The translations under genes and the position numbers were made by a program. This document shows, piece by piece, positions 1 to 38,257 of a stretch of 64,000 nt of DNA. Below the pieces are notes generated by a model. It was not told the DNA's origin, ran no database searches, and was given only the letters and a program-made list of their open reading frames with translations. Source of the DNA: an uncultured Candidatus Saccharibacteria bacterium (GTDB lineage Bacteria; Patescibacteriota; Minisyncoccia; Minisyncoccales; CAYZYK01); NCBI GenBank assembly GCA_964482615.1, contig CAYZYK010000001.1:2144-66143 (forward strand), in the 5' to 3' direction. How positions within the stretch are numbered: the stretch's first letter is position 1; each line of letters starts with the position of its first letter.

Positions 1-875
1 ACGGAAAGACTGAACATGGGACTCTTTATAACTCAAATCCCCAAATTCAAACTACCTTTAGAAAATATATAGAAAAACTTTTTGGTATTTCTACTAAATT
101 AGTTAAAAGAAAAACAGGATATAAAATTGTAAACAAAGGCTGGAAAACAATGACTAGATTCCTGGTTGATATTGCGGATTTTCCATTAGAGAAGAAGAGT
201 AAAAAAATAAAATTTCCAGAATTATTTTGGACCCCCTCTTTTAGTAAAGGATTTATAGCCGGATGGTTTGATACAGATGGTTATATTTCTCAATCTAATC
301 ATTCCATTGAATTTGTCTCAAAAAGCCAAATATTAGTTAAAAAGATTTCTATCTATCTTTTATATTTTGGTATTCACTCTGCAATATATAAGAATAGGAA
401 AAAAGCTCCTGGTTGGAACAAAAAAAAGACATATTTTTCTCTAAGAATTGCTAATAAGCCTTATCTGTTGAAATTTTTTAAAAATTTTCCAGTGAAACAC
501 CAAAAAAAGAAAGAAAAAATTAAAGAAGCTTTATCAAAGACTTCGACTAGTCGGATTTTTGACCTAACTCCACTTCCTGGTAAAAACTTAAAATCTTTTT
601 ATATTGATGAGCACTTATTTCCGTATTTTTCTAAATATCGCTCTTATGAGTTTTTATCCAGACATTTTTTGAAAAAATTATTAAAATGGAAGAATAAAAT
701 TGTTCTTCCGGAAATATTTTCTTTGCCAGCAGTGAAAAACCTACTTAATCCTGGAGAAATTAGTTGTGTGAAGGTAAAAAATAAAAAAAGAATTGAAAAT
801 AAATCTAAGTTTGTCTACGACCTTACTGTTTCTGAGTCACATAATTTTGTAGCTGAGAGGATGTTTATTCATAAC
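1..875 (+). mobile_element. Intein (C-terminal portion with homing-endonuclease domain) inserted between K and T of the GKT P-loop of IF-2. The intein N-terminus lies upstream of the window.
   Basis: The intein terminal HN (codons ending at 875) is followed by a +1 Thr. Host extein resumes as TAILDYIR, which corresponds to GHVDHGK|T SLLDYIR in canonical IF-2. A LAGLIDADG-like motif FIAGWFDTDGYIS and the C-terminal splicing block are visible. Confidence 0.8.
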
Positions 876-7746: not shown

Positions 7747-7822
7747 TGGTGCGCGTGGATGGATTTGAACCATCGACCTTTCGCTTATAAGACGAATGCT
7801 CTAACCCCTGAGCTACACGCGC
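7747..7822 (-). tRNA. tRNA with anticodon UAU (AUA-decoding tRNA-Ile), CCA encoded
   Basis: Acceptor GCGCGTG/CACGCGC + ACCA. D-stem GCTC/GAGC. Anticodon stem TTCGT/GCGAA enclosing loop CTTATAA, so positions 34-36 are TAT. T-arm GATGG-TTCAAAT-CCATC; 76 nt. Confidence 0.7.
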
Positions 7823-10800
7823 TTATTTTTTCTTCTTTTTCTTCTTGTTTTTTTGTATTTTCCGATTATATTTTCGAATTCTTCTCTTTCTATAGTTTCT
7901 TTTTCAATTAAAGTTTGAGCTAACTTATTAAGTAGTTTTTTATTTTTCTTTAAAACCTTTGTTGCTTCTTTTTCAGCAGCCTTTATAAATTTACTTATTT
8001 CTTTATCAATCTTAGAAGCTACTTTTTCAGAATAATCTTTTTGTTCTGCCATTTCATTGCCCAAAAATACCATTTCTTCTTCTGATCCGTAGGTTACAGG
8101 CCCTAGAGAAGACATACCATATTTTTTAACCAATTTACGAGCTAATTGAGTTGCTGTCTTAAGGTCGTTTGATGCTCCGGTAGTTATTTCTCCAAACTTT
8201 ATATTCTCAGCACAATATCCACCCAATAAGGTGGTGAGTTCTGCTGAAAATTCAGACTTAGTTTTCATTTTTTTCTCCTCTCTTGGCATTTTCAAAGTAT
8301 AGCCCGCTGCCATGCCCCTGGCAATTATTGATATTTTCCTAACAGGTTCTGCTTTGGGAGAGAAAGTAGAAGCTAAAGCATGTCCTGCCTCGTGAAAAGC
8401 AGCTATTTTCTTTTCTTGCTCAGACAAAACGTGACTTTTTCTTTCGGGTCCCAAGAGAACCTTTTCAATTGATTCTAATAATTCTTCTTGATGAACTTTA
8501 GATTTGTTTCTTTTTGCAGCAAGTATAGCTGCTTCGTTCATTAAATTGGCTAAATCAGCTCCCGAAAATCCTGGAGTTCTTTCTGCTACTTCTCTTAAAT
8601 TACAATCCGAATCTAAAGGTTTTCCTTTAGAATGAATTTTTAATATCTTTTCTCTGTCATTTATATCAGGTAGATTTAAGACCACTCTCCTGTCAAACCT
8701 CCCTGGTCTCAAAAGAGCGGGGTCTAAGACATCGGGTCTGTTCGTTGCTGCAGCAACGATAATAGAAGATTCTCTCTCAAAACCATCCATTTCAGTTAAA
8801 ATCTGATTCAATGTTTGTTCTCTTTCATCGTGACCCCCACCAATTCCAGCTCCTCTTCTTCTGCCAACAGCATCCAGTTCATCAATGAAAACAATGGCTG
8901 GTTGGTTCTTTTTGGCAGTAGAAAATAAATCTCTTACTCTACTGTTGTGCAAAAGAGTTGGTTTTTCTCCACCAAAGAAAGCTTCATTTTGGCAACCACA
9001 AAGATCATAAACATAGCCAGAGTAGGGTCTTTTTGTAACCTTTTTAACAATTGGTTTCTTGAGTTGATTGGGGGAATTTTTAATTTTTCTAAATGGATGA
9101 GAGGTCTTTCCAATTCTAAGAACCCAATAGGTAGTCTGAGGAAGGGGTCTGTCCTTAGTTTTTCTTCCTTTTTTAGTTTTGGCCTCTCTAATACTTGCTT
9201 GTATTCCATGCATTGCACAAAGCCAAGCTAATTCTTTGATAAGTTGATGACTCACAGAACTGACAGTTAGCCTTCCTTCTTGGGTAGTGTATCCATCTCC
9301 TCTATAAAGCCCCTTTAAATAATTTAAAAAGTAATTTTTGGGTAGTTCCCATAGGAATTCAGGAATATGCTTGTGGTGACTACCATTTCCACAATGTTTT
9401 TCAAAAAATTCTCCCAATACTTTACCAAAAAAAGCAATTCTACAACTATTGTCTTCAGTAAAAGTTACATATGGTTCTTGGTTAGTTAATAATTTATTCA
9501 TTAAAGAAATACAATCTTGATGAAGTTTTTTTTCATGGCTGCCAAATATAAATTCTACTCCATATTCAATTTTTCTTCCTTCAGCGGTATAATATCCTAG
9601 AAGTTTCATTAAAGAGGGGGTGGTTTTTATTTCCTGAGGAATTTCTCTTTCCTGATAATTCTTCGCTAACCAAAGGTCCCTAGGTTGATATTTATTTCTT
9701 TGCCAATTGCTGATTGTTGTTTGAGATACTCCAAGTTGGTCAGCTAATTCATGTTGGTAAACTTTTCCTTGTCTAGCTAAAGCAAAACTAAATTTTTCTT
9801 CTAACTCCTCAATCTCAAAATTTTTATTCCATATCGGTAGAACCTTCTTTTTTGTTTTTTTGAATTGATGAGATTTTACTTTGTGGGTTGTTCCAACTCC
9901 AGGCACAAAAGTACTTCTTACCTTGAAAGGTAAATTAACTAGGATATCTCCAGGATTTAAGTCTTTTGCTTTTTTTGGGGTAATAAGATTTCTAGCTCGC
10001 ACAAACACGCTGTGATCACCGGTGGTTTTAATTTTTCCTCCTAAATATTTAATTTCATAAATTTCATCAACTTTATGGCGATAAACACCTTTTATTTGTT
10101 GCCAACAACTTCTTCCAAAAAACTTCTTAGTTGAGTTTTTAGAAGCACTCCCAAATTTTGTATCTAAAGATTTGTATCCTAAAGTTTTTATCCCTATAAC
10201 TGGAATTACATAATCGTCTTTTTTTTGAGGGTAGAATTGATCAACAAGCTCTGAGATTGGCAAAAGCTTGGTCTCGTTTTCAGTTTTAACTAATATTGGA
10301 GTATCACCAGTTACACTGGCTCCGACTCCGACAAATAACTCAATAAATTCAGAACCAGAAATTGAATAAAAGGGTACTTTAGCTTCGTTTGCTACCGCTC
10401 TGGCTAATAAGGTTTTTCCGGTTCCAGGAGCGCCCACCAGTAGTATTCCTTTAGGAATTCTTGCCCCCATTTTTAAATATTTCTTTGGCTTTTTTAAAAA
10501 ATCAACTACCTCTTTTAATTCTTCTTTGGCGTTTTCAAGTCCTGCAACGTCGTCAAAAGTAACCTTTTCTTTAGTTCCGCCCTTGGCCCCAAACAAACGG
10601 GCTTTTGCTTTCGAAAAATCAAGAGCCTGCATAGCTCCACCCTTAGCGCGCCTTAAGAGCAACCAAAAGAAAATTCCGAAGACAGCCAGAGGTAATATTC
10701 CAAAAATTAATAAAGGAAATAACCAAGAACTTAAACTTTCTTTTTTTTCTTCAACCTCAATTGTTAATTGGTTTGATTCTGTTAATTGGTTTAATTTTTC

Positions 10801-11070
10801 TTTTTCGGTCCCATAGGTTACAAGGGCTTCAAACAGGGGAGTGTCTGATTCTTTTCGGGAGATTGCCTTTTCATCATTTTTGTAGAAAACAGTTAATTCT
10901 TCCCCCGCAACAATAATTTTTTTAACCTCTTCTTGATTAATTTTTTTTGCTAATTCTGTTATACTAATCTTATTTTCGGACTCAAAGGGCTGGGCAACTA
11001 AACTAAAAACGCCTCCGATTATGAGAAAAATCAGGATTATGAAAATAAAGTTTTTAATTAATTTATTCAT
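7813..11070 (-). CDS. ftsH: ATP-dependent zinc metalloprotease FtsH, containing a ~458-aa intein between Walker A and Walker B
   Basis: N-terminal TM plus GILLVGAPGTGKTLLARAVANEAKVPFYSISGSEFIELFVGVGA|[intein]|SRVRDLFSTAKKNQPAIVFIDELDAVGRRRG...; zinc site FHEAGHAL; C-terminal protease domain. The stop TAG at 7815-7813 overlaps the 5' end of the adjacent tRNA by ~10 nt. Confidence 0.9.
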   Translation of the reverse strand: MNKLIKNFIFIILIFLIIGGVFSLVAQPFESENKISITELAKKINQEEVKKIIVAGEELTVFYKNDEKAISRKESDTPLFEALVTYGTEKEKLNQLTESNQLTIEVEEKKESLSSWLFPLLIFGILPLAVFGIFFWLLLRRAKGGAMQALDFSKAKARLFGAKGGTKEKVTFDDVAGLENAKEELKEVVDFLKKPKKYLKMGARIPKGILLVGAPGTGKTLLARAVANEAKVPFYSISGSEFIELFVGVGASVTGDTPILVKTENETKLLPISELVDQFYPQKKDDYVIPVIGIKTLGYKSLDTKFGSASKNSTKKFFGRSCWQQIKGVYRHKVDEIYEIKYLGGKIKTTGDHSVFVRARNLITPKKAKDLNPGDILVNLPFKVRSTFVPGVGTTHKVKSHQFKKTKKKVLPIWNKNFEIEELEEKFSFALARQGKVYQHELADQLGVSQTTISNWQRNKYQPRDLWLAKNYQEREIPQEIKTTPSLMKLLGYYTAEGRKIEYGVEFIFGSHEKKLHQDCISLMNKLLTNQEPYVTFTEDNSCRIAFFGKVLGEFFEKHCGNGSHHKHIPEFLWELPKNYFLNYLKGLYRGDGYTTQEGRLTVSSVSHQLIKELAWLCAMHGIQASIREAKTKKGRKTKDRPLPQTTYWVLRIGKTSHPFRKIKNSPNQLKKPIVKKVTKRPYSGYVYDLCGCQNEAFFGGEKPTLLHNSRVRDLFSTAKKNQPAIVFIDELDAVGRRRGAGIGGGHDEREQTLNQILTEMDGFERESSIIVAAATNRPDVLDPALLRPGRFDRRVVLNLPDINDREKILKIHSKGKPLDSDCNLREVAERTPGFSGADLANLMNEAAILAAKRNKSKVHQEELLESIEKVLLGPERKSHVLSEQEKKIAAFHEAGHALASTFSPKAEPVRKISIIARGMAAGYTLKMPREEKKMKTKSEFSAELTTLLGGYCAENIKFGEITTGASNDLKTATQLARKLVKKYGMSSLGPVTYGSEEEMVFLGNEMAEQKDYSEKVASKIDKEISKFIKAAEKEATKVLKKNKKLLNKLAQTLIEKETIEREEFENIIGKYKKTRRKRRKNKRV
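8944..10317 (-). mobile_element. Intein in FtsH (Ser1 ... HN, +1 Ser) with a LAGLIDADG homing-endonuclease domain and an HTH motif
   Basis: Extein sequence FVGVGA / SRVRDLF is contiguous in intein-free FtsH. The insert starts SVTGDTPILVK and ends YVYDLCGCQNEAFFGGEKPTLLHN. Internal motifs are LLGYYTAEGR and YLKGLYRGDGY (LAGLIDADG pair) and HELADQLGVSQTTISNWQRN (HTH). Boundaries were checked at nucleotide level: codon AGT at 10317-10315 and AAC at 8946-8944. Confidence 0.8.
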
Positions 11071-11180: not shown

Positions 11181-11945
11181 TCCCCCGCGGGATAGCGCAA
11201 GGGACTCGGGATAGACAGGGATTATAGGTTTGTAAGAGGTTAGTTGGCGTTCACGACGTTCTCCAGGAAGCTGATAGCTTTCTGGAACGTCCTAAGAATT
11301 TTATACGTGCGGTTGCCCTCGACTTTCTCCCAGAAGGCTTTCTTTCTCTGGGCAGCCTTCTGTTTGAGGTCGCTTAGGTAGATGCTCTTCTTTTCGCAGG
11401 CAAACTCCAATTCGGCCCAGGCGACGTTAAAGGCCACTTGGTCCAAGATTCGGTATCCCTCCCACACCCGGGGATACATAGCTTTGCACCTTCGCAGAGT
11501 TTCCTCGGGTATGGAACTTGCTGCGGTCCTTCGGGCCCACTCCGTCAAGGAATTGGTACCCTCGATCTCCTCGATTTCCTCAAGAGAACCGGAGATGAGA
11601 AGTTGTTCTATCTCCTTTCTCTGGTCCTCAAAAGAGCTGTAGCAGGCCCCACAGACGATGTCCTGTATTTTCTGCTTCTCCTCCCCGCAGACCGGACAGG
11701 ACCGGATTAGCTTTTCGGCCTCGTCCAGGACCGGGTTGAGCTCTTTCTCAACCCATGCGCGAAGATCTTCGCGGCTGGCGCCGTAGCCCAGATTCTGGGG
11801 AACCTGGGGGTCTTCCTGTCCGTTTATTTCTTTCACGTAAGGGCTTTGCTGATGGGTGTTGGTACCCATTTGATTCTTCCTCCTTGAGGTTGGATTGCGT
11901 CGAAACTACGCTACTGTGGACCTATCCCTATCCCTGTCTATATTA
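11181..11945 (-). mobile_element. Compositionally foreign GC-rich island (about 55% GC against ~33% background) bounded by imperfect inverted repeats sharing ATAGACAGGGAT (left 11205-11225, right 11920-11945). It contains one ORF and its own terminator.
   Basis: The GC shift is abrupt at both edges. Left end: GGGATAGCGCAAGGGACTCGGGATAGACAGGGATTATAGG. Right end is the reverse complement of CCTAATATAGACAGGGATAGGGATAGG. Hairpin AGTCCC...GGGACT (11181-11207) is followed on the minus strand by TTTTCTTTTT, a terminator for the internal ORF. No transposase was recognised. Confidence 0.55.
11240..11869 (-). CDS. Hypothetical 209-aa acidic protein with a C-x2-C-x11-C-x2-C zinc-ribbon. Foreign GC3-rich codon usage, perfect Shine-Dalgarno.
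   Basis: AAGGAGGAAGAATCAAATG start context. Codons are mostly G/C-ending (cag, ccc, ggc, cgc, ctg), unlike all neighbouring genes. Motif SCPVCGEEKQKIQDIVCGAC. No family recognised. The overlapping plus-strand ORFs in the track are high-GC artefacts. Confidence 0.6.
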   Translation of the reverse strand: MGTNTHQQSPYVKEINGQEDPQVPQNLGYGASREDLRAWVEKELNPVLDEAEKLIRSCPVCGEEKQKIQDIVCGACYSSFEDQRKEIEQLLISGSLEEIEEIEGTNSLTEWARRTAASSIPEETLRRCKAMYPRVWEGYRILDQVAFNVAWAELEFACEKKSIYLSDLKQKAAQRKKAFWEKVEGNRTYKILRTFQKAISFLENVVNAN

Positions 11946-16802: not shown

Positions 16803-17315
16803 ATGCTTAACCCAGAACAGGTTTTAAATAACCTTCAGTTAAAAGCAAATATGTCAGCTACAGAATTTGGTTCTGGAGCTGGAGGATTCAGTATTCCCCT
16901 AGCTAAAAGACTGAGACAGGGAAAGGTTTATGCTTTGGATATTCTAGAAGAGAAACTATCTGCTTTGAAGAATAAAGCAACCTTAGAAAAAATAGCAAAC
17001 ATTGAAACTATAATTTGTAACTTGGAAGCAGAAAAAGGATCTACCCTGCACAGAGAAAGCCAGGACATAGTTTTAATACCTAATATTTTGTTTCAAGCAG
17101 AAGATGAGGAGTCTATGATGAAAGAAGCTAAAAGAATCTTAAAACAAGGAGGTGAACTCCTTGTTTTAGATTGGAAAAAAGAATCTCCGCTTGGTCCCAG
17201 AGAGGGGAGAATTTCAAAAGAAGAAGTTAAAGAAATTGCAGAGAAAATAGGCTTGAAACTAAAGAAGGAATTTTCACCGGGTGATTACCATTATGGTTTG
17301 ATTTTTACAAAATAA
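16803..17315 (+). CDS. Class I SAM-dependent methyltransferase
   Basis: 170 aa; motif I EFGSGAGGFSIPLAK, acidic residue after beta-2 (YALDIL), LVLDW motif. Confidence 0.65.
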   Translation: MLNPEQVLNNLQLKANMSATEFGSGAGGFSIPLAKRLRQGKVYALDILEEKLSALKNKATLEKIANIETIICNLEAEKGSTLHRESQDIVLIPNILFQAEDEESMMKEAKRILKQGGELLVLDWKKESPLGPREGRISKEEVKEIAEKIGLKLKKEFSPGDYHYGLIFTK

Positions 17316-17333
17316 TTAATTTATAATATATTA

Positions 17334-17663
17334 ATGAAAAAATTAATTCTTCTTTTAATAATATTGACCGGTTTATCATTTTTTTCATTTACCGAAGCCG
17401 TTAAAATAAAGAACCCTTTAAATGTTGACACTTTTGACGATCTCATTGATGCAATCGCGGGAATAATTGAATTAATTGTTGGTTCTCTGGCTGTTTTAAT
17501 GTTAATAATTGCTGCGATTTATTTTATTACAGCAGCAGGGGATCTCAACCAGATTAGCCAAGCAAAAACTATGGTAAAATATGCCATAATAGGAGTTATT
17601 ATTGCTTCTATGGCCCGAGCTATAGGGACCGTAGTTGAATCTCTTTTAAAAACAGCTCCCTAA
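17334..17663 (+). CDS. Small secreted two-helix membrane protein, TrbC/VirB2 (T4SS-pilin)-like, array member 1
   Basis: 109 aa; signal peptide then two hydrophobic helices around loop ITAAGDLNQISQAKTMVKYA. Same architecture as members 2-9. Confidence 0.45.
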   Translation: MKKLILLLIILTGLSFFSFTEAVKIKNPLNVDTFDDLIDAIAGIIELIVGSLAVLMLIIAAIYFITAAGDLNQISQAKTMVKYAIIGVIIASMARAIGTVVESLLKTAP

Positions 17664-17774
17664 GTTATTAACAGCGCCCTGTTGATAAGTTTCTTAATAT
17701 CCTCTAAAATATTACAATATAAAACCTAAAGGTCGAAATAAAGATTTTATAAATTACAAAAATAAATATTAATC

Positions 17775-18095
17775 ATGAAAAGAATAATATCTACCTTAAT
17801 TCTCAGCAGTCTATTGGCTTTACCTGTCGTGGCTGCAGCTCAAATTGGAGAACCCTCCCCACCCACTGACATTATTGCTATTCTTCAGACAATAAAATCA
17901 ATAATCTGGGCTGCCTTCACTGTTTTTGCTATCATTATGTTTATTTATGCTGGAATACTTTTCTTTACCGCAGGTGGTGATCCCGAAAAAGCAGCCAAAG
18001 CAAAAAGCGCTGTTATTTTCGGTGTAGCTGGAATAGCAATAGCTGTGTTGGGATATGGAATAGTTCAGATCGTTATGGGTATTATGGGTGCTTAA
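17775..18095 (+). CDS. T4SS-pilin-like small membrane protein, array member 2
   Basis: 106 aa; MKRIISTLILSSLLALPVVAAAQ signal, then helix-loop (FTAGGDPEKAAKAKSAVIFG)-helix. Confidence 0.45.
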   Translation: MKRIISTLILSSLLALPVVAAAQIGEPSPPTDIIAILQTIKSIIWAAFTVFAIIMFIYAGILFFTAGGDPEKAAKAKSAVIFGVAGIAIAVLGYGIVQIVMGIMGA

Positions 18096-18235
18096 TACTG
18101 AATTTAAGCTAATTTTTCTAACAACAATGAATTCTAAGCCATGATTTTGAAGGTGGCTTAGAATTCATTTATTATGTATAATAGATTATAATAAAAGTCG
18201 AGTACCATCATTATAATAAGACACAAAGAAAAATC

Positions 18236-18556
18236 ATGAAAAGAATAATATCTACCTTAATTCTCAGCAGTCTATTGGCTTTACCTGTCGTGGCTGCAGC
18301 TCAAATTGGAGAACCCTCCCCACCCACTGACATTATTGCTATTCTTCAGACAATAAAATCAATAATCTGGGCTGCCTTCACTGTTTTTGCTATCATTATG
18401 TTTATTTATGCTGGAATACTTTTCTTTACCGCAGGCGGTAATCCAGATAGCGTTGCTAAAGCAAAAAGCGCTGTTATCTTTGGAGCAGCAGGAATAGCAA
18501 TAGCTGTGTTGGGATATGGAATAGTTCAGATCGTTATTGGCATTATGGGTGCTTAA
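18236..18556 (+). CDS. T4SS-pilin-like small membrane protein, array member 3. Near-identical to member 2 except in the inter-helix loop.
   Basis: 106 aa; first ~68 codons are DNA-identical to member 2, then GNPDSVAKAKSAVIFGAAG replaces GDPEKAAKAKSAVIFGVAG. Confidence 0.45.
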   Translation: MKRIISTLILSSLLALPVVAAAQIGEPSPPTDIIAILQTIKSIIWAAFTVFAIIMFIYAGILFFTAGGNPDSVAKAKSAVIFGAAGIAIAVLGYGIVQIVIGIMGA

Positions 18557-18714
18557 AAGAGAAGTAACACAGAGAATTCAATTGAAGTTGAATTTGACAA
18601 ATTTCAATTCAAAGATTAAATTTAGAGAATAGAAAATAATTTTAAATTTTTGGTATTCAAAAGGTCGCTAAACCCTGTTAAGGTAAAATTTAAGCTATAA
18701 AAATAAAAGAGAAC

Positions 18715-19041
18715 ATGAAAAGATTACTGTTATTTTCGGTTATTGTTTCTCTTGTGGGATTACCTTTGGTGACGGCTGCTCAAAACCCCCCTGGTTCAGG
18801 TTGGGCGTCAAGCTTTAGTGATATGTTTAATAATGTGATAGCTGAAGTATGGTTGATTTTCGTTGCTCTTGCTATTGTCCTGTTCATTTATGCGGGTGTT
18901 TTGTTTCTGACAGCATCCGGGAATCCAGAAAGAATCACCAAGGCGAAAAGCGCTTTTTTGTGGGGTATAGCTGGTGTTGCAGTGGCTATAATTGCTTTCA
19001 CAATAATTCAACTTGTGGGAAATTTGTTGGGAGCTTATTAA
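18715..19041 (+). CDS. T4SS-pilin-like small membrane protein, array member 4
   Basis: 108 aa; YAGVLFLTASGNPERITKAKSAFLWGIAGVAVAII. Confidence 0.45.
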   Translation: MKRLLLFSVIVSLVGLPLVTAAQNPPGSGWASSFSDMFNNVIAEVWLIFVALAIVLFIYAGVLFLTASGNPERITKAKSAFLWGIAGVAVAIIAFTIIQLVGNLLGAY

Positions 19042-19216
19042 CCAGAGATAAGAGATATAGAATCCCTGTTTAAAAAATTTGTTTTAATAAAGAATGAATA
19101 AGCTCTAATCCATTATAATTTTTGGATTGAGCTTATTTTATTAGACAAGATTTTTCTTTTAAGATAAAATAGAGGAAGCAAAAGGCAGAAATCAAAGATC
19201 TAAATAATATTTTAAG

Positions 19217-19531
19217 ATGAAAAAAATATTGATTACTTTAATATTATTAAGCATCTCAATATTTCCCTTGGGAGCTGAAGCCCAGATTATTATAGGTAAT
19301 ATTACTTGGCCTCAGCTTGTGCTTGGTCTTACAACAGCTATGTGGTCTGTTTTTGTTGGAGTTACAATAATAGCCTTTTTATACGCTGGTATATTATTTC
19401 TTACTGCCTCGGGAGATCCTCAGAAAATCGATAAAGCAAAAAAGGCGGTTATCTGGGGAATTGCTGGAGTAGCAGTAGCTTTTCTTGCTTATACTATAAT
19501 TAATATAGTAGGATATATGTTGGGGGCTTAA
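19217..19531 (+). CDS. T4SS-pilin-like small membrane protein, array member 5
   Basis: 104 aa; YAGILFLTASGDPQKIDKAKKAVIWGIAGVAVAFL. Confidence 0.45.
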   Translation: MKKILITLILLSISIFPLGAEAQIIIGNITWPQLVLGLTTAMWSVFVGVTIIAFLYAGILFLTASGDPQKIDKAKKAVIWGIAGVAVAFLAYTIINIVGYMLGA

Positions 19532-19572
19532 ACCCCTTAAAGTCAAAGAAACTTTAATCTAAAAGATAAAAG

Positions 19573-19884
19573 ATGAAAAAAAACTTATTTCCCATATTTT
19601 GTTTGGTATTTTTAATAATCCCCGCAATCATGTCTGCTGCTGTAGTCAGCAGTGGAAGCTCAAGTTTAGACAAAATAATTATAGGTGTTGTAAATGCGGT
19701 AGCCGCTGTAGCTACTGCAGCAGCGGTTATTAGTCTTCTTTATGCTGCAATACTTTTTCTTACTGCTTCTGGTGAACCAGACAAAATTACAAAAGCAAAA
19801 AAAGCTTTTCTTTGGGGTATAGCTGGTGTAATAATAGCAATTATAGCAAGCTCTATATTTACTATAGTTGGCTATTTTTTATAA
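19573..19884 (+). CDS. T4SS-pilin-like small membrane protein, array member 6
   Basis: 103 aa; YAAILFLTASGEPDKITKAKKAFLWGIAGVIIAII. Confidence 0.45.
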   Translation: MKKNLFPIFCLVFLIIPAIMSAAVVSSGSSSLDKIIIGVVNAVAAVATAAAVISLLYAAILFLTASGEPDKITKAKKAFLWGIAGVIIAIIASSIFTIVGYFL

Positions 19885-19902
19885 AAATAAAAAAACCAAG
19901 AG

Positions 19903-20292
19903 ATGAAAATTAAAAAAACTTTCTTTTTTCTAATCTGTGTTTTTCTTTTCTCTTTGCCTTTTGTAACTAATGGGTTAGATATTCAAGAGACAGCGCCAGG
20001 ACCCAAGCATTGGGCTTTTGTAGAGAGCGGATTGGCTAACATATTGAGTTGGGTTGCCACTATTGTGGTTTTGGGATTTCTTGTTTACGCTGCTATTTTG
20101 TTTGCTATAGCAGCAGGGGAACCAGACAAGATTTCCAAAGCAAAGAAAATGTTTCTTTATGCGATAATAGGAATAGTGGTGATCCTAATAGCGTTTATAA
20201 TTAGAATAATAACAAGCGAAACATTTAAAAACTTTACTTGGGAATTCAATGCTTGGGAGCCTATAAAAGATTTTTTAAAAGGTATTTTTTAG
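19903..20292 (+). CDS. T4SS-pilin-like small membrane protein, array member 7 (with extra C-terminal tail)
   Basis: 129 aa; YAAILFAIAAGEPDKISKAKKMFLYAIIGIVVILI plus C-terminal ETFKNFTWEFNAWEPIKDFLKGIF. Confidence 0.45.
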   Translation: MKIKKTFFFLICVFLFSLPFVTNGLDIQETAPGPKHWAFVESGLANILSWVATIVVLGFLVYAAILFAIAAGEPDKISKAKKMFLYAIIGIVVILIAFIIRIITSETFKNFTWEFNAWEPIKDFLKGIF

Positions 20293-20325
20293 TCTTAATA
20301 AATCTTTAATTTTTTATCTCTAATA

Positions 20326-20667
20326 ATGAAAATTGAAAAATATTTTTCTGTATCTATCCTCCTAATGATTTTTTTACCTTTATTACCCGCTGCAGTCATG
20401 GCAGCTTGGGGAATACAGGATGCACCTACTGCAATAGATAGCTGGAATAAAATAGGTAACGCTATTCTCCTTCCAATTTACGCTATTGCTGTGGCAACAA
20501 TAGTAATCATGTTTTTTTACTCAGCTATTTTGTTTGCTACGGCAGCAGGGGAACCAGACAAGATTTCCAAAGCAAAGAAATCGTTTCTCTGGGGATTAGT
20601 TGCCGTGATTGTTTTGATTATTGTTCCCGTTATAATCACAATAATGAGAGAGATAACAGGCATTTAA
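20326..20667 (+). CDS. T4SS-pilin-like small membrane protein, array member 8
   Basis: 113 aa; YSAILFATAAGEPDKISKAKKSFLWGLVAVIVLII. Confidence 0.45.
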   Translation: MKIEKYFSVSILLMIFLPLLPAAVMAAWGIQDAPTAIDSWNKIGNAILLPIYAIAVATIVIMFFYSAILFATAAGEPDKISKAKKSFLWGLVAVIVLIIVPVIITIMREITGI

Positions 20668-20723
20668 CCTTTAATCAAAAAATGTTAGATTTTTTAAAAA
20701 GATTAACTAAAAGCTATTTAAAT

Positions 20724-21023
20724 ATGAAAAAGACTTTACTCTTTTCAATTATTCTTGTTGTTCTGGTCTTTCCTCTTGTAACTGATGCTGTTGATGTTAC
20801 TCCGATTAAAGAAAAAATAGAAAGCGTTTCGGATGTAGCTTGGACTATTGCTGGTACACTTGCTGTTGTCATGCTTATTTATGCTGGAATTTTATTTGTT
20901 ACAGCAACAGGAGAACCAGAAAAACTAGGGAAAGCAAAAAAAGCTTTCATTTGGGGTATTACGGGATTGATTCTAGCTATTTTAGCTAATACGATAGTAA
21001 GTATGATAGTAGATAATTTATAA
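20724..21023 (+). CDS. T4SS-pilin-like small membrane protein, array member 9. ATG at 20724 (MKKTLLFS...) preferred over the track start at 20682.
   Basis: YAGILFVTATGEPEKLGKAKKAFIWGITGLILAIL. The signal peptide is only sensible from the internal ATG. Confidence 0.45.
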   Translation: MKKTLLFSIILVVLVFPLVTDAVDVTPIKEKIESVSDVAWTIAGTLAVVMLIYAGILFVTATGEPEKLGKAKKAFIWGITGLILAILANTIVSMIVDNL

Positions 21024-21034
21024 GCAAAAATTCT

Positions 21035-21115
21035 GTCCCTGTGGCGGAATGGCAGACGCGCGTGGTTTAGGACCACGTCCCGCGAGGGGTGCAGGTTCGA
21101 ATCCTGCCGGGGACA
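21035..21115 (+). tRNA. tRNA-Leu (anticodon UAG), long variable arm
   Basis: Acceptor GTCCCTG/CGGGGAC (one G-U), D-arm TGGCGGAATGGCAGACGCG, anticodon stem CGTGG/CCACG with loop TTTAGGA, variable TCCCGCGAGGGGT, T-arm GCAGG-TTCGAAT-CCTGC. Confidence 0.8.
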
Positions 21116-21146
21116 CAAAAAACCCAGTTAACTAACTGGGTTTTTA
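21116..21146. terminator. Bidirectional terminator hairpin (ACCCAGTTA/TAACTGGGT flanked by A6 and T5)
   Basis: Perfect 9-bp inverted repeat between tRNA-Leu (+) and the hsp20 gene (-). Confidence 0.55.
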
Positions 21147-21165
21147 GAATTGAGAATTCTCATTT

Positions 21166-21582
21166 CTATTTCACATCTATCTTCTGTTTTTCTTCTTTTT
21201 GAAGTTTGGGTAATTCTACTTTGAGGATTCCATTTTCCATTGAAGCATCTATCTTTGAAGTATTTACGTTTTGGGGTACTATTATTTTTCTTGAAAAAGG
21301 ACCCCAATAGCATTCTTTGTAAAAATATTTTTTATCATCTTGTTGAACGGGATTTTCTCTACTTCCTTTTATAATCAACATATCTTTTTCAACAGAAACA
21401 TTAATATCCTTTGTTGATATTCCCCCAACAGCAGCTAAAACAACAAAGCTTGAGTCAGTCTCATAAACATCGACAGCTAATTTTCCTTCTGGCTGAAGCC
21501 AGGACTTTTCTTTCCCTCCCTCTTTCTTACCGGAGGAAAGTTTCTTTTTTGGTTTTGATTTTGTTTTCTTCGAAAAAAACAT
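21166..21582 (-). CDS. Hsp20/alpha-crystallin family small heat-shock protein
   Basis: 138 aa; alpha-crystallin domain AVDVYETDSSFVVLAAVGGISTKDINVSVEKDMLIIKGSRE...ASMENGILKVELPK, with a basic N-terminal tail. Confidence 0.8.
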   Translation of the reverse strand: MFFSKKTKSKPKKKLSSGKKEGGKEKSWLQPEGKLAVDVYETDSSFVVLAAVGGISTKDINVSVEKDMLIIKGSRENPVQQDDKKYFYKECYWGPFSRKIIVPQNVNTSKIDASMENGILKVELPKLQKEEKQKIDVK

Positions 21583-33274: not shown

Positions 33275-34339
33275 ATGTTTTTCAATCCTTTTAAATTTCT
33301 TTTTCCCAAAAAATTTGTGGGAGTTGATATTGGAACTTCAGCAATTAAACTTGTTGAAGTTTCCCGTTGGGGAAAAGGAAGAACCCTGGAAAATTATGGG
33401 GAAATAAAATCTCAAGCTCTTTTTGAGGAGCAATTTCGTACTTTTGAAAAAACAACCCATTTAATTTCAGAACAGTTTGTGGGGAGAGCGCTGAAAGCTA
33501 TTCTTAGAGAAGCTAAGATTAAAAACAAGTCAGCCATCTTTACTTTACCTGATTTTTCTACTTTTATCACCACCTTTGAATTGCCCCCAATGACAGAAAG
33601 GGAAATTCCAGACGCTGTTCGTTACACCGCTCCTCGTTATACGCCCCTTCCTTTATCTGAAACTACTTTGGATTGGAAATTAATCGGGGGAACTCCCGGA
33701 GGCAATAATCATCTTAAAATACTTTTAATTGCTATTCCAAACGAAGTTGTTGAAAAATATCAAAAAACAGCAGAATTAGCTGGTCTTGATCTTTATGCTC
33801 TGGAAGCTGAAGTTTTAGCGATAGCAAGGGCTGTGATTAAAAAAGAAAAAGACATTATTTGCTTGGTTGATATTGGGGCTCAAAGCACAACTATAAGTGT
33901 AGTAGACAAAGGTAATTTAAAAAGAAGTTACAGTTCAGAATTTTCCAGTAACAAATTGACTTTTGCTATTAGCTCTTCTTTGAATTTAGATTATGCTGAA
34001 GCAGAAGAGATTAAACAAGAGAAGGGTTTAATCTCTTCTCAAAAAGAAATTAAAAGAAGCCTTTCTCTTTTGATTGATCCTTTTTTAGCTGAGATTGAAA
34101 AAGTTTCAGATGAATTTTCCCGCAAAACAGGAAAAGAGGTTAATAAAATATATTTATCTGGTGGAGGGGCGAATTTGCCAGGATTAAGAGAATATGTGGA
34201 AAAAGAGACAGGAAAAGAAACTAAAGTTCCCAACTGTTTCTCTGATTTACTCTACCCGCCTATTTTAGGAAAAACCTTAAAACAAGTAGGACCTCGTTTT
34301 TCAGCAGCTGTTGGTGTTGCTTTACAGGAACTTCAATAA
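33275..34339 (+). CDS. pilM: Type IV pilus assembly protein PilM (actin-like ATPase fold)
   Basis: 354 aa; VGVDIGTSAIKLVEV, VDIGAQSTTISVV, SGGGANLPGL. Confidence 0.8.
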   Translation: MFFNPFKFLFPKKFVGVDIGTSAIKLVEVSRWGKGRTLENYGEIKSQALFEEQFRTFEKTTHLISEQFVGRALKAILREAKIKNKSAIFTLPDFSTFITTFELPPMTEREIPDAVRYTAPRYTPLPLSETTLDWKLIGGTPGGNNHLKILLIAIPNEVVEKYQKTAELAGLDLYALEAEVLAIARAVIKKEKDIICLVDIGAQSTTISVVDKGNLKRSYSSEFSSNKLTFAISSSLNLDYAEAEEIKQEKGLISSQKEIKRSLSLLIDPFLAEIEKVSDEFSRKTGKEVNKIYLSGGGANLPGLREYVEKETGKETKVPNCFSDLLYPPILGKTLKQVGPRFSAAVGVALQELQ

Positions 34340-34407
34340 TTAAAGTATAGGTTGGATATTTAATCTAGATTATTATATAATGAGTAAAGTAATAAAATAA
34401 ACAAACT

Positions 34408-34959
34408 ATGGCTCCTTGGTATGATTTTCTCTACAAACTAAAGACTAAAGAATATTGGTGGCTAGATTTAGTTCTTTATTTTGTTTTATCTTTGTTAGTT
34501 GCTTCGGTTATTTGTTATTTTCTCTTTGGTCTTAAAATCTCCTTTCAAAAAAAACATCTCCAAGAATTAGACCAGAAAATAGTAGAAACTGGAACGGAAC
34601 AACAAAAGGACCTGGAACAGCAGGTTTTTCGTTTTCAAAGAAAACTAGAAGATTTTACTGTTATATTTGAGGACCATAAAATATCCTCAAACCTATTTGC
34701 TTTAATTGAAAGTTCAACCATTCCTAATGTTTGGTTTTCAAGCTTTGGCCTCAGCTCCCAAGGTTATAGTGTAAGAGTAAGAGGGGACACAGATGATTTC
34801 CAAAGTTTAGCTCGCCAGATTTTTTATTTTGAAGAAAATAAATTAATTAAGGAAGTAAATACATTATCTACAACCTTAACAGAAGATGGAAATATTAATT
34901 TTAGTTTGAGCCTTTTGTTTGAACCGAATCTGTTAAGTCAATTTAAAGGAACAGAATAG
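34408..34959 (+). CDS. pilN: PilN-like bitopic pilus alignment protein
   Basis: 183 aa; single N-terminal TM, coiled coil, periplasmic domain. Placed between pilM and a PilO-like gene. Confidence 0.5.
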   Translation: MAPWYDFLYKLKTKEYWWLDLVLYFVLSLLVASVICYFLFGLKISFQKKHLQELDQKIVETGTEQQKDLEQQVFRFQRKLEDFTVIFEDHKISSNLFALIESSTIPNVWFSSFGLSSQGYSVRVRGDTDDFQSLARQIFYFEENKLIKEVNTLSTTLTEDGNINFSLSLLFEPNLLSQFKGTE

Positions 34960-35025
34960 AAAATTATATTCTTTAAAAAACCTCTTGTATCTGAAACAAT
35001 TACCCAATAAATATTATTTAAGACA

Positions 35026-35565
35026 ATGAAATTAGATAGACCAATCGCTATAGCAGTTATTGTCTTTATTATTTTAGCTGTGATCTTTTATTTCGTTTTG
35101 CCAAGATACAGAGAGATCAGAGAATTTCAAATTAAAATTGCAGAAAAAGAAGCCGAACTAAAAGGAAAAGAAGATTATTTCCGGGGGATAGCTGAAGTCT
35201 ATCAAAAGTTAGTTGAAAATGAAGAGAATATAAAGAAAATTAATACTGCTTTACCCGATAAAATAAATTATCCTGCTCTTATTTCATTTCTTCAAGAAAA
35301 AAGCCAAGAAAATGGTTTAGTCCTAAGAACGGTTAACCTAGGGGGAACTTCCCAAGCCAGAGGAAAGGAGAAACTTAACCAGACTAATTTCTCTCTTCGG
35401 GTTGATGGTTCTTATTCTGCTTTCCGTAACTTTATTTCTAGCCTGGAAAATTCATCCCGAATTATTGAACTAGATAATGTCTCTTTTTCAAGTAGAGCAA
35501 CAAGAACAGAAGAAGAACCGAATATTTATCAATTTAGTTTAGGAATAAGAGTTTATTCTTATTAA
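35026..35565 (+). CDS. pilO: PilO-like bitopic pilus alignment protein
   Basis: 179 aa; N-terminal TM (IAIAVIVFIILAVIFYFVL), coiled coil, C-terminal ferredoxin-like domain; operon context. Confidence 0.5.
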   Translation: MKLDRPIAIAVIVFIILAVIFYFVLPRYREIREFQIKIAEKEAELKGKEDYFRGIAEVYQKLVENEENIKKINTALPDKINYPALISFLQEKSQENGLVLRTVNLGGTSQARGKEKLNQTNFSLRVDGSYSAFRNFISSLENSSRIIELDNVSFSSRATRTEEEPNIYQFSLGIRVYSY

Positions 35566-35568
35566 TCT

Positions 35569-35982
35569 ATGGCTATTGTATTTATATCTCCTAAAAGATC
35601 ACAGACGGTGCTGATTTCTGCCATTATTGGAATAGTATCTTTGGGTCTTATTATCATTCTTCTTGTTGTTTTTTTAAGTAAGCCCCAGTCCATAGCACCA
35701 GAGAGAGTTTTCAAACCAAAAGAAGTTAAGATTAATTTTGATATTCTAAAATCACAGCGATTAAAGGAACTTTCTCTTTTTCCTACAGAAATAAAGAAAG
35801 AATTTAATTATATAGCAGAAACAGAAGACGGAATAGACCGATCTGGAAAAATTTTAGCCGTTTCAGAAAGCGAAGCTGAAATATTATTAGAAGAGACGGG
35901 ACTTGAGAATATTGAGATTAAGAAAACAGAAATCGGCAGAAAAAATCCTTTTGTTCCTCCTCAAATAGCAACAGAAGAATAA
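35569..35982 (+). CDS. Small membrane-anchored pilus-locus protein (PilP-like?)
   Basis: 137 aa; one TM. C-terminal GRKNPFVPP resembles the conserved proline/NPF region of PilP. Weak assignment. Confidence 0.35.
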   Translation: MAIVFISPKRSQTVLISAIIGIVSLGLIIILLVVFLSKPQSIAPERVFKPKEVKINFDILKSQRLKELSLFPTEIKKEFNYIAETEDGIDRSGKILAVSESEAEILLEETGLENIEIKKTEIGRKNPFVPPQIATEE

Positions 35983-36021
35983 AACATTAAAAAAACTTTA
36001 AGAAAACCATAAATCTTCATT

Positions 36022-37746
36022 ATGGAGGGTTTGATTAAACAATTAACCAAAGAAGGAGTAATAGACAAATCAAAAGCCAAGGATTTGCAGCTAGAGAAAA
36101 AAAGAACCGGGAAGAAAGAAGAAGATATAATTTTAGAAAAAAATATTGTTCCCGAGGACTTTTTATTTAAGCTAAAGAGTAAACTTTTAAAAATTTCTCT
36201 GAAGGAAATTGTTCCAGAGGAAATACCCCTGGAAACTTTAAAATTAATCCCAGAAAGCTCTGCTTTAAGTTATAATATGATTCCTTTATCTGAGAAAGAC
36301 GATACGGTAGAGATAGGAATGGTTTATCCAGAAGATACTCGTTCAAAAGAAGCTCTTCGATTTATAGCAAGACAGGGTAAATTTGATTACAAAGTTTACT
36401 TAATTAGTCAAAAGAATTTTGAAGAACTTTTAAAACAATACAGAACTTTAAAAAGAGAAGCTAAAACGGCTCTGGAGGCTTTGGAAGAAGAAGAAATAGG
36501 CGTTCCACCAAGAAGAGAAGAACTGCCCGACATGGAAAGGGTGGCTAAGGACGCTCCAATTGTTAAAATGACTTCTGTTGTTTTAAAACACGCTGTTGAA
36601 GGTAAGGCTTCTGATATTCACATCGAGCCCACCAGAGAAAAGCTTAAAATTAGATTCAGGCTAAATGGTATTCTGTACTCAAGCTTGTTTCTGCCCACCA
36701 GGGTTCATTCAGCTATTGTGGCTAGAATCAAAATTTTAGCCAAGTTAAAAATTGATGAAACTAGAATTCCTCAAGATGGCAGATTTTCTACAGAAATTAA
36801 TGGGAAAAAAATTGATTTTCGCGTTTCGACCTTCCCTACTGTTTTGGGTGAGAAGGTGGCAATAAGGGTTCTTGATCCCACGGAAGGTCTTAAATCTTAC
36901 AAAGAACTAGGGCTCTCTGAAAGAAACATTGAATTAGTTGAAAAAGCAGCTAAAGATCCCTTTGGTTTAATTTTAGCCACAGGACCAACAGGATCTGGAA
37001 AAACAACAACTCTTTACGCCATAATGAGATTTTTGAACAAAGATAAAGTTAACATTGTAACCCTTGAAGACCCAGTTGAATATTCTATTAAGGGTGTAAA
37101 CCAATCTCAAGTTAAGCCCGAAATTAATTATACTTTTGCTAGGGGGCTGAGACATATTTTAAGACAAGATCCGGACATCATTATGGTTGGTGAAATCAGA
37201 GACGAAGAAACAGCAGCCTTGGCAATTCACGCTGCCTTAACCGGACATCTTGTTTTATCAACCTTACACACTAACAACGCTACCGGAGTTATTCCCAGAT
37301 TAATTGATATGGGCATAAAACCATTTCTTCTTTCTCCCACTTTAAATATTGCTATTTCCCAGAGATTAATAAGGGCTCTTTGTCCTTATTGTAAAAAGAA
37401 AGTTAAAGCAGACAAAAAAATTAAAAAATACATATTAGAACAAATTGAAAAACTTCCTTCAAAAGCTAAGAAAGAAATAGATACCTCCAAAACTATTTAT
37501 GTATACAGAGCAGAAGGTTGTGATAAATGCAACTTCAAAGGTTACACTGGAAGAACTGGGATTTTTGAGGTTTTGGAAATGACAGACCAGTTATCTGGTG
37601 CTATCTCAGAGAAAATATCTCCAGAGCAAATACGAAAAAAAGCTTTAGAACATGGAATGATAACTATGGCTCAAGATGGTGTTTTGAAAGCCCTCAAAGG
37701 AGTAACTACAGTTGAGGAGGTAATGAAATCAACTCAAATAAGATAA
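36022..37746 (+). CDS. pilB: Type IV pilus assembly (extension) ATPase PilB/GspE
   Basis: 574 aa; N-terminal GSPII_E_N-like region, Walker A GPTGSGKTTTLYA, Asp box, Walker B IIMVGEIRDEETA, His box, tetracysteine CPYC...CDKC. Confidence 0.85.
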   Translation: MEGLIKQLTKEGVIDKSKAKDLQLEKKRTGKKEEDIILEKNIVPEDFLFKLKSKLLKISLKEIVPEEIPLETLKLIPESSALSYNMIPLSEKDDTVEIGMVYPEDTRSKEALRFIARQGKFDYKVYLISQKNFEELLKQYRTLKREAKTALEALEEEEIGVPPRREELPDMERVAKDAPIVKMTSVVLKHAVEGKASDIHIEPTREKLKIRFRLNGILYSSLFLPTRVHSAIVARIKILAKLKIDETRIPQDGRFSTEINGKKIDFRVSTFPTVLGEKVAIRVLDPTEGLKSYKELGLSERNIELVEKAAKDPFGLILATGPTGSGKTTTLYAIMRFLNKDKVNIVTLEDPVEYSIKGVNQSQVKPEINYTFARGLRHILRQDPDIIMVGEIRDEETAALAIHAALTGHLVLSTLHTNNATGVIPRLIDMGIKPFLLSPTLNIAISQRLIRALCPYCKKKVKADKKIKKYILEQIEKLPSKAKKEIDTSKTIYVYRAEGCDKCNFKGYTGRTGIFEVLEMTDQLSGAISEKISPEQIRKKALEHGMITMAQDGVLKALKGVTTVEEVMKSTQIR

Positions 37747-38208: not shown

Positions 38209-38257
38209 ATCTGATTGTGTTCTTAAACTCATAACTGAAATTTAGTTTAAACAATAC

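Follow-up and report, generated by a model that had tools for sequence, protein, structure and literature searches.

A nine-gene tandem array of VirB2-like pilin paralogues between gyrA and tRNA-Leu(UAG) in a patescibacterial genome

We analyzed a stretch of 64,000 nucleotides (nt) from an uncultured bacterium deposited as Candidatus Saccharibacteria (assembly GCA_964482615.1, contig CAYZYK010000001.1, positions 2,144 to 66,143; hereafter, the window). At positions 17334-21023, it carries nine paralogous open reading frames (ORFs) for small secreted membrane proteins of 103-129 amino acids (aa), arranged head to tail on the + strand and here called g1 to g9. When a profile of the nine was searched against all ORFs of at least 50 aa in the window, it matched exactly g1-g9 (E 1e-36 to 5e-44), so the array is discrete and complete. 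A tRNA-Leu(UAG) gene follows on the same strand at 21035-21116, 11 nt after the stop codon of g9. An initial annotation, made from the letters of the window, had described nine consecutive same-strand paralogues ending at this tRNA and had read them as pilins of a type IV secretion system (T4SS); the ORFs, the profile, and the tRNA all agree with the first part of that description, and the second part is the subject of what follows.

The proteins and their family

Judged by profile matches, g1-g9 belong to the VirB2-like T4SS_pilin family. PF18895 (T4SS_pilin; gathering score, GA, 26.6 bits) matches nine of the nine array proteins, eight of them above GA, and its 71-position model is spanned in every case from positions 2-16 to positions 67-71, thus over helix, loop, and helix. 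In array order and all on the + strand, the genes are g1 (17334-17663; 109 aa; 33.1 bits), g2 (17775-18095; 106 aa; 31.9 bits), g3 (18236-18556; 106 aa; 25.2 bits), g4 (18715-19041; 108 aa; 37.3 bits), g5 (19217-19531; 104 aa; 41.2 bits), g6 (19573-19884; 103 aa; 36.5 bits), g7 (19903-20292; 129 aa; 32.0 bits), g8 (20326-20667; 113 aa; 33.5 bits), and g9 (20682-21023; 113 aa; 56.8 bits). The single member under GA, g3, falls short by 1.4 bits, yet it is 94% identical to its partner g2. The second pilin model, PF04956 (TrbC/VirB2; GA 27.9 bits), is passed by g9 only (30.7 bits), and there was no reported TrbC match for the other eight. If the arrays of eight related genomes are included with that of the window, 51 of 52 members match PF18895 and 9 of 52 match TrbC (E≤1e-3). 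The reach of the family is wide; in a set of 1.84 billion representative proteins, 49,949 matched the nine-gene profile at E≤1e-3.

Two members require comment. The protein of g1 is of a conserved “NPL-motif” pilin subtype, with KNPLNVDTFDDLIDAI in its mature N-terminus, and that of g7 has, in the alignment, a 25-aa aromatic C-terminal extension. In addition, the true start of g9 is likely the ATG at 20724 (giving 99 aa) and not the ORF start at 20682, as judged by aligning it to its paralogues and to the orthologue in the closest related locus (L002, see below).

The hidden Markov model (HMM) searches thus support the T4SS-pilin-like (TrbC/VirB2) assignment, and no Pfam or NCBIfam family outscores the pilin families for any of g1-g9. 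The PHROGs library of phage proteins, which includes holin families, returned zero families at E≤0.01 for all nine, and the N_methyl prepilin motif of Pfam is lacking in g1-g9 (it is present in the type IV pilus, T4P, pilins of the window at 40633, 42045, and 43197). The sole NCBIfam model matched by all nine is NF045849, at 18-31 bits, under the curated cutoff of 40, with matches running over nearly the full 80-position model. This hints that the VirB2-like protein may stem from an MPF-FATA-type ancestry of the patescibacterial T4SS and not from co-option of VirB2-like pilins from diderm systems, an origin considered in the main text of a recent survey (PMC12102498).

The architecture is likewise as initially annotated. 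Aligned at full length, the nine yield the loop consensus YAGILFxTAxGxPxKIxKAKKAFxWGIAG, in which residues F, A, G, A, and K are invariant, so the shared loop motif exists and is rich in Lys. By heuristic evaluation, all nine have K/R at two or three of their first six positions, a hydrophobic h-region, and an AXA-like site at about residues 22-28, and this signal-peptide-like N-terminus is followed by two further hydrophobic segments of 19 residues. An AlphaFold2 (AF2) model of g9 (pLDDT 77) has three helices, at residues 2-23 (the signal), 28-60, and 65-98. The most variable part of the proteins is the ~20 residues after the predicted signal peptide, where there are also indels. Net charge is −3 to 0 for the mature N-terminus and 0 to +2 for the loop, a distribution that fits the positive-inside rule, which is established knowledge. 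Under that rule, the loop would be cytoplasmic and both termini would lie outside. VirB2/TraA-type pilins before assembly have the same topology, with the loop cytoplasmic and both termini external.

The C-termini offer a separate observation. Many members end in (I/L/M)GA-COOH, including g2, g3, and g5 (at 18087-18092, 18548-18553, and 19523-19528) as well as L002_2 to L002_4, and g4 ends in GAY. In VirB2 and TrbC, the termini are trimmed and cyclized.

A conserved locus, its transcription units, and its paralogues

Pilin searches of public genomes and metagenomes recovered 8 + 48 related loci, and a look-up of one fused protein added one more (in three copies), for ~57 distinct loci; for the pilin locus search, a four-sequence alignment was used because the nine are too divergent. 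Most of these loci show the order GyrA-methyltransferase-[2-9 pilins]-tRNA-Leu-Hsp20-PrsW-ValRS-TsaD, and every locus that is long enough has an array of two to nine pilin genes. GyrA and the methyltransferase lie upstream of the array in 31 of 33 informative loci, Hsp20/PrsW/ValRS lie downstream in 22 of 28, and tRNA-Leu(UAG) follows the array in all 24 loci that were scanned and had enough downstream sequence. The largest fully bounded array seen has nine genes, the window being tied in this respect with L002.

Given that this gene order is kept across GyrA identities to the window of 51%-81%, the array was at its gyrA-linked address already in a deep ancestor, as a vertically inherited locus of the core chromosome, with the tRNA as a syntenic neighbor and not an integration site. 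The initial annotation had pointed out that tRNAs are classical integration sites, and this hint did not hold up. A search of the window for the 23-mer at the tRNA-Leu 3′ end, with up to three mismatches allowed, found one occurrence (zero expected), which is the tRNA itself. There are no direct repeats bracketing the array in the window; no integrase, relaxase, or transposase occurs among the array neighbors; and GC is 0.33-0.37 inside the array versus 0.29-0.41 in the flanks, thus without anomaly.

The named relatives are Staskawiczbacteria, Azambacteria, other metagenome-assembled genomes (MAGs) of the Parcubacteria group, and two MAGs labelled Saccharibacteria, with Staskawiczbacteria nearest to the window locus. 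Based on these nearest relatives, on taxonomy, and on features typical of the candidate phyla radiation (CPR), such as inteins in IF-2 and FtsH, the host is probably a Parcubacteria-type lineage of Patescibacteria (CPR).

It had been proposed that every gene of the array is followed by its own hairpin and independently transcribed. A simple terminator scan demands at least three G-C pairs and so misses AT-rich hairpins; we therefore folded each spacer instead and compared it with dinucleotide shuffles (z-scores below). Hairpins on the + strand with significant structure follow three genes. After g1, there is a 10-bp stem with a 4-nt loop (17665-17688; spacer z −2.07), which is not conserved in L002. 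After g2, a hairpin of 16 perfect pairs (18126-18169; z −4.36) with a weak U tract is a likely intrinsic terminator, and it is kept in L002 (z −4.09) with one compensatory change of A-U to G-C and one change of A-U to G-U. After g4, a stem of ~15 bp followed by UUUAUU (19097-19137; z −3.05) is also a likely terminator. The weak, AU-rich 9-bp stem after g3 (18574-18595, + strand) is present in both the minimum-free-energy and the centroid structures, but its spacer folds no better than shuffles (z +0.46) and the hairpin is indistinguishable from chance. The spacers after g5-g8 (18-56 nt) have no significant structure. Finally, a bidirectional intrinsic terminator at 21118-21145 (A-tract, 12-bp stem, U-tract; z −3.86), the sole strong one downstream, closes both the pilin/tRNA unit and the convergent hsp20, and L002 has an equivalent hairpin after its tRNA (z −4.93). 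An Rfam scan of 17200-21300 (E≤1) returned the tRNA only, with no known RNA family in the long spacers.

Promoter-like sites of the sigma-70 type show a related pattern (all on the + strand, scored as matches out of 12). Before g1, TTGATT-18-TATAAT and TTTACA-17-TATATT overlap at 17298-17332 (both 10/12); before g2, there is TTGATA-17-TAAAAT (17682-17710; 10/12); before g3, TTGAAG-17-TATTAT (18147-18175; 9/12), overlapping the 3′ arm of the g2 hairpin; before g4, TTGACA-17-TAAATT (18594-18622; 10/12); and before g5, TAGACA-17-TAAAAT (19142-19170; 10/12), a candidate start for a unit of g5-g9 and the tRNA. The six 10/12 matches on this strand all lie just upstream of g1 (two), g2, g4, or g5, or at the start of g1 (one), and upstream of g6-g9 there are only weaker 9/12 matches, within coding sequence. 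The spacers of L002, at 69, 147, 142, and 231 nt and then 36-77 nt, have the same long-then-short pattern as those of the window. Because the spacers after g5 are 18-56 nt long and without a hairpin until the terminator after the tRNA, we read g5-g9 and tRNA-Leu as one unit, and suggest five units in all (g1, g2, g3, g4, and g5-g9 + tRNA-Leu). Thus, only g1-g4 look monocistronic, and the proposal of a separate unit for every gene is not sustained.

Pairwise identity among the nine proteins is 28%-49% (mean 40%), with the exception of the 94% identical pair g2/g3. Divergence is thus less uniform than in the initial description, which called the proteins highly divergent outside the loop. The closest relative is L002, whose flanking proteins are 69%-81% identical to those of the window and whose array also has nine genes. 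Reciprocal best hits between the two arrays are collinear at positions 1, 2/3, 4, 5, 6, and 9, and ambiguous at positions 7 and 8. The protein of g1 is 72% identical to L002_1 (reciprocal best hit) and falls in one group with the first array genes of L002-L006, as well as with the NPL-type genes of L007 and L009. The mature part of g4 is 43% identical to L002_4, and g6 is 60% identical to L002_6; from 18554 to 20836, the DNA similarity of the window to L002 is largely lost. At the nucleotide identity of ~75% between the two, synonymous sites are saturated in such an AT-rich genome. The collinear reciprocal best hits indicate that the nine-gene array predates the split of the two lineages and that each paralogue was kept.

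The pair g2/g3 has a distinct history. Over the region compared (17771-18076 versus 18232-18537), identity is 100% along a block of 204 nt that opens 4 nt ahead of the ATG (17771-17974 in g2), so that codons 1-66 are identical, and the differences fall in a 55-nt patch in the loop. Within codons 67-106, synonymous divergence (dS) is 0.38 and nonsynonymous divergence (dN) 0.08, thus dN/dS ~0.2, and the flanking spacers are unrelated. Based on the 5′ identity block, the divergent 3′ part, and the unrelated spacers, the pair is best explained by a gene-conversion tract limited to the coding sequence and under purifying selection, with the 3′ part of g3 apparently older. Positive selection on the g2/g3 loop was considered and rejected, given the dN/dS of ~0.2 in the 3′ part where the genes differ. 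Because L002 has an equally near-identical pair at its positions 2-3, concerted evolution at these positions is suggested. Elsewhere in the array, 76 nt of the loop region of g7 and g8 are 91% identical. A search of the array region for invertible elements, silent cassettes, and inverted repeats at its flanks turned up none.

Relatives with more than one pilin module per protein provide a further line of evidence. In the search of representative proteins, most of the top profile matches were long proteins with 2-17 matched stretches. Those that we refer to as poly-pilins (P0005, P0006, P0011, P0013, P0018, and P0031) are in-frame chains of T4SS_pilin modules, each consisting of a helix, a Lys loop, a helix, and a linker of ~25 aa; examples are a protein of 820 aa with 8 modules and one of 1775 aa with 17 modules, and up to 34 transmembrane (TM) helices are predicted. 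They have a single N-terminal signal peptide and none internally, so all loops should be on the same side of the membrane. One of them, P0006 (7 modules; L010, 10001-11821), is encoded directly downstream of gyrA, the methyltransferase, and a gene of the SBP type, among single pilin genes, that is, in the same gyrA-methyltransferase-linked locus as the window array. An SBP_bac_1 gene precedes the arrays in more distant relatives, and L007 has a sortase after its array. In distant relatives, the locus also encodes large proteins of 283-907 aa with one pilin module (L048, 5591-8311; L031, 8921-10702; L036, 9233-10684; L047, 6950-8785; L007, 8597-9445). In the L048 protein, the pilin module is joined to four He_PIG Ig domains, an fn3 domain, and a C-terminal SLT lytic transglycosylase, a fusion that appears to tie the locus to VirB1-type activity. 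Such gene fusions suggest that the fused parts act together.

The neighborhood of the array in the window is one of housekeeping genes. Upstream are gyrA and an S-adenosylmethionine (SAM)-methyltransferase, and downstream, on the other strand, are hsp20, a gene for a PrsW-family protease, valS, and tsaD. Among the ORFs of at least 300 aa, all but one have a Pfam assignment or a recognizable glycosyltransferase-like sequence. In addition to GyrA, ValRS, and TsaD, these encode IF-2 and FtsH (both with inteins), RecG, a GH130 phosphorylase, a GT2-like membrane glycosyltransferase, LigA, FtsW, RpoB, RpoC, FtsK, RecA, YchF, CofD, phosphoglucomutase, a class I tRNA synthetase, and the proteins of a T4P cluster (see below). 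The one ORF without a Pfam match encodes a protein of 305 aa, which is part of the T4P cluster and unlike T4SS machinery. The statement that VirB4, VirD4, and VirB6 are lacking from the 64 kb window is therefore confirmed, and in the related loci that were inspected, none of these three genes lay closer than 10 kb to the array.

Several other features of the window deserve mention. There is a complete T4P cluster at 33275-43745, unrelated to the T4SS pilins, with PilM, PilO, PilB (36022), a response regulator (37843), PilT (38258), PilC (39328), three N_methyl pilins (40633, 42045, and 43197), and a prepilin peptidase (41222). Two different kinds of “pilin” gene set thus lie within 20 kb of each other. 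IF-2 and FtsH (window 150-2288 and 7813-11070) each contain an intein with a LAGLIDADG endonuclease domain. The gyrA ORF is ~1,280-1,300 aa in L002 and L004 (L002, 3696-7544) versus 823 aa in the window, and because of this difference, the L002/L004 gene probably carries an intein that the window gene lacks. A tRNA-Ile with anticodon UAU (7747-7822), beside a tRNA-Val(GAC), is kept in L005, L016, L029, and L034; such a tRNA is uncommon for reading AUA in bacteria, most of which use a lysidine-modified CAU tRNA.

Two observations concern the assemblies. Positions 10719-~11900 of the window and 1-~1200 of L002 (the “Saccharibacteria”-labelled MAG CAZDPT010000001) are 99%-100% identical over ~1.2 kb, comprising the end of ftsH and a 209-aa ORF at 11240-11869, and identity then drops abruptly to ~75% over the rest of 20 kb. 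This points either to recombination of the two lineages in the very recent past or to a chimera made in assembly. L001, a 1632-bp Logan contig from SRR7048220, contains g4-g6 and the start of g7, with proteins 100% identical to those of the window. As this is an independent assembly of another read set, the same organism was present in SRR7048220.

What the pilins may build

The reading that we favor, and consider probable without regarding it as secure, is that g1-g9 are co-expressed, non-redundant VirB2-like subunits, which Sec exports and which a T4SS with its genes elsewhere in the genome assembles into a pilus-like structure for contact with a host. Each protein would be exported via Sec with removal of its ~22-28-residue signal peptide, and the mature protein of ~80 residues would sit in the membrane as a helical hairpin, its ends facing outward and its Lys-rich loop (GxPxKxxKAKK) in the cytoplasm. 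Subunits would then be taken up by the chromosomal patescibacterial T4SS (VirB4, VirB6, VirB3, and VirB8) and would build the pilus-like or conduit structure thought to be needed for contact between episymbiont and host. Several paralogues would be made together and could co-assemble, either with some as the major and others as minor subunits or into a heteromeric fibre. Whereas family membership, the anatomy of genes and hairpins, synteny, paralogue retention, and the fused forms are observed directly, export, topology, dependence on a T4SS, pilus formation, and co-assembly are steps that we infer. We favor co-assembling, non-redundant subunits because of the apparent co-transcription, the collinear retention of paralogues, and the poly-pilin fusions.

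The initial annotation considered a set of alternative pilins that could reflect antigenic or host-range variation or redundancy. In its fullest form, this reading holds that the surface pilins can replace one another and that one or a few of them are in use at any time, for adaptation to host strains or escape from recognition by hosts or phages, and it was proposed as host-strain adaptation in the main text of the survey of patescibacterial pilins (PMC12102498), with the virB2 paralogues of Bartonella and Anaplasma as an analogy. The idea has sequence features on its side: the mature N-terminal segment, predicted to face outward, is the most variable and has indels; g4-g9 are more divergent from L002 than their flanks and DNA similarity collapses over much of the array; copy number ranges from 2 to 9 between lineages; and the separate promoter-like sites and hairpins of g1-g4 would allow individual regulation. 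However, at least five members (g5-g9), 18-56 nt apart and without intervening terminators, are probably made together, and the invertible elements, silent cassettes, and flanking inverted repeats that were looked for in the array region are lacking. The paralogues are kept position by position in L002 (six collinear positions) without turnover, the sole recent duplicate pair is under purifying selection where its members differ, and a fused poly-pilin, with up to 17 modules, forces joint production of all of them. Moreover, the pilin series of Ca. Southlakia epibionticum is essential (PMC10633639), which argues against redundancy. We therefore regard a repertoire of alternatives as unlikely, and less favored than co-assembly.

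A lower rank still, in our view, goes to the possibility that these VirB2 homologues form no T4SS pilus at all but a membrane-resident oligomer (a ring, channel, or envelope scaffold), encoded in a housekeeping locus independent of virB4. This would sit well with a deeply conserved neighborhood of gyrA, valS, tsaD, and tRNAs far from T4SS genes, with poly-pilins whose predicted TM helices, up to 34 in number, resemble polytopic membrane proteins, and with a helical hairpin so generic that it is equally similar to ATP-synthase c subunits (Foldseek). Also, the pilin is not near virB4 in ~40% of pilin-positive assemblies, according to the main text of the survey, although by the same account it adjoins virB4 in 1,135 (PMC12102498). 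Against such an oligomer, the homologous array of S. epibionticum lies inside a T4SS cluster (PMC10633639), the pilin module of L048 at the same locus is fused to an SLT transglycosylase, an activity typical of T4SS accessory proteins, and g9, like eight relatives, scores above or near the cutoff of the TrbC/VirB2 model. The two remaining explanations fare far worse. Adjacency to tRNA-Leu(UAG) and tandem amplification are the sole support for an integrated mobile element or genomic island carrying the array as cargo, and with no further copy of the tRNA 3′ end in the window, no bracketing repeats or mobility genes, flank-like GC, and the same gene order in most informative related loci across GyrA identities of 51%-81%, it is effectively refuted. 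The idea that the genes encode small membrane proteins of some other class (holins, bacteriocin immunity proteins, or T4P prepilins) had in its favor the small size, the two hydrophobic helices, and the T4P cluster of the window; the PHROGs, Pfam/NCBIfam, and N_methyl results given above refute it.

Some observations weigh against the co-assembled, T4SS-built structure that we prefer. The mature parts of g4-g9 are 43%-60% identical to L002 versus 69%-81% for the flanking proteins, and host-driven diversification would also produce this faster divergence. T4SS machinery occurs neither in the 17 kb upstream nor in the 43 kb downstream of the array, and it is from the literature that we assume dependence on VirB4. 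Polytopic poly-pilins are not easily squared with extraction into a fibre subunit by subunit and could indicate an assembly that stays in the membrane. A home-made heuristic was the sole basis for judging signal peptides and TM helices. In this AT-rich region, the count of promoter-like matches is not above that of shuffles, and promoters in CPR bacteria are not well characterized. Searches of Protein Data Bank (PDB) chains with profiles of the nine genes and of the 52 array genes reached no solved conjugative pilin (the best match was the phage G8P coat protein, E 0.03, chiefly via signal-peptide similarity), and Foldseek with the AF2 model of g9 gave no significant match, fold search being uninformative for a helical hairpin. 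Finally, no pilus of such proteins has been visualized in any patescibacterium (PMC12857230), a point that also counts in favor of the membrane oligomer.

More tentatively, and as a possibility rather than an expectation, in Parcubacteria-type CPR the pilins may be a core module fixed between gyrA-methyltransferase and tRNA-Leu(UAG), uncoupled from virB4, with the paralogues as obligate co-assembling heteromeric subunits. The strongest hint of obligate co-assembly is the repeated fusion of 2-17 modules, in one case within a locus of the window type; a pilin module has also been joined to Ig domains and a lytic transglycosylase. If this is true, the product would be either a membrane assembly or a fibre or conduit whose subunits are linked covalently in a chain, perhaps with a set length, and known T4SS pili offer no precedent for either.

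Much of the uncultured diversity of bacteria consists of Patescibacteria, which live attached to other microbes. A T4SS with its pilin series is among the few envelope systems shown to be essential for this attached lifestyle (by transposon sequencing, Tn-seq, in S. epibionticum). The window adds no new principle; its nine-gene array is a clean case in which the transcription architecture can be resolved. The ~57 loci do provide three testable leads, namely the fixed address, apparently independent of virB4, the positional retention of paralogues, and the poly-pilin and pilin-enzyme fusions, and together they argue for co-assembly over antigenic variation. If confirmed, they would be a guide to structural work on the pilus-like conduit of an ultra-small monoderm to its host.

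Relation to known systems

The classical conjugative pilins VirB2 (Agrobacterium), TrbC (RP4), and TraA (F) share with the array proteins a signal peptide, a two-helix hairpin with a basic loop, and the predicted topology, and g9 passes the TrbC/VirB2 model. They differ in that profiles of the window family detect no solved pilin and that the host here is presumed to be monoderm, whereas a classical pilin is normally the product of a single gene in the T4SS operon of a diderm. Classical leaders are ~36-51 aa long, and VirB2 and TrbC are cyclized head to tail.

Among monoderm systems, the Mbov_0395 / MMCAP2_0565 pilin-like protein of Mycoplasma integrative and conjugative elements (ICEs), which defines NF045849, is comparable as part of a wall-less or monoderm system of MPF-FATA type, and patescibacterial VirB4 is related to the MPF-FATA class (PMC12102498, main text). 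The window proteins score under the NF045849 cutoff and thus are not members, and in Mycoplasma ICEs the gene is single and not in an array. It should be noted that conjugative T4SSs in Gram-positives are normally without a pilus (Wang et al., PMC10633639).

Tandem amplification and variation of a T4SS pilin in a host-dependent organism is also known from Bartonella and Anaplasma phagocytophilum, which have clusters of virB2 paralogues (cited in the main text of PMC12102498). Unlike the window array, these clusters are linked to the virB operon and belong to diderm intracellular pathogens of animals, in which they are read as antigenic variation against adaptive immunity, something that has no counterpart for an episymbiont of microbes.

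The sole case with functional evidence is Ca. Southlakia epibionticum ML1, in which the pilin series of the T4SS cluster SEML1_0006-0019 is essential by Tn-seq (Wang et al. 2023, Cell, PMC10633639; PMC12857230). As here, several VirB2-like pilins of similar structure and divergent sequence lie side by side in a monoderm epibiont; in S. epibionticum, there are six of them inside a T4SS gene cluster, versus nine in a housekeeping neighborhood in the window. That such a pilus serves as a conduit for signals or nutrients is speculation in a 2025 review (PMC12857230).

The closest match overall is the survey by Quinonero-Coronel et al. (2025, Microb Genom, PMC12102498), the main text of which describes a search of 3,035 Patescibacteria genomes with PF18895 and PF04956. 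VirB4 was found in 2,417, VirB2-like pilins in 1,948 of the VirB4-positive assemblies (near virB4 in the 1,135 mentioned above), and arrays of 2-11 pilin genes numbered 441 in 383 assemblies, most abundantly in Microgenomatia and Saccharimonadia, with a mean identity of 25% and a maximum of 54%. An array was defined there as at least two PF18895- or PF04956-positive genes in tandem or one gene apart, a definition that covers the window array, and the two agree in Pfam families, tandem same-strand arrangement, phylum-level group, divergent paralogues, and size (nine, within 2-11). With a mean identity of 40% and a pair at 94%, the window array is less divergent than the published average, a difference of degree, and it comes from a Parcubacteria-type lineage. 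A further difference is that the survey analyzed virB4 neighborhoods, whereas the window array occupies a gyrA-methyltransferase...tRNA-Leu locus; gyrA, tRNAs, and fused pilins are not mentioned in the main text of that paper.

Tandem VirB2-like arrays in Patescibacteria were thus already published in 2023-2025, and the window holds a large, well-preserved example of them and no new system. What is possibly new, in comparison with these published arrays, is the gyrA-linked core locus, the collinear retention of its paralogues, and the in-frame fusion of pilin modules into poly-pilins.

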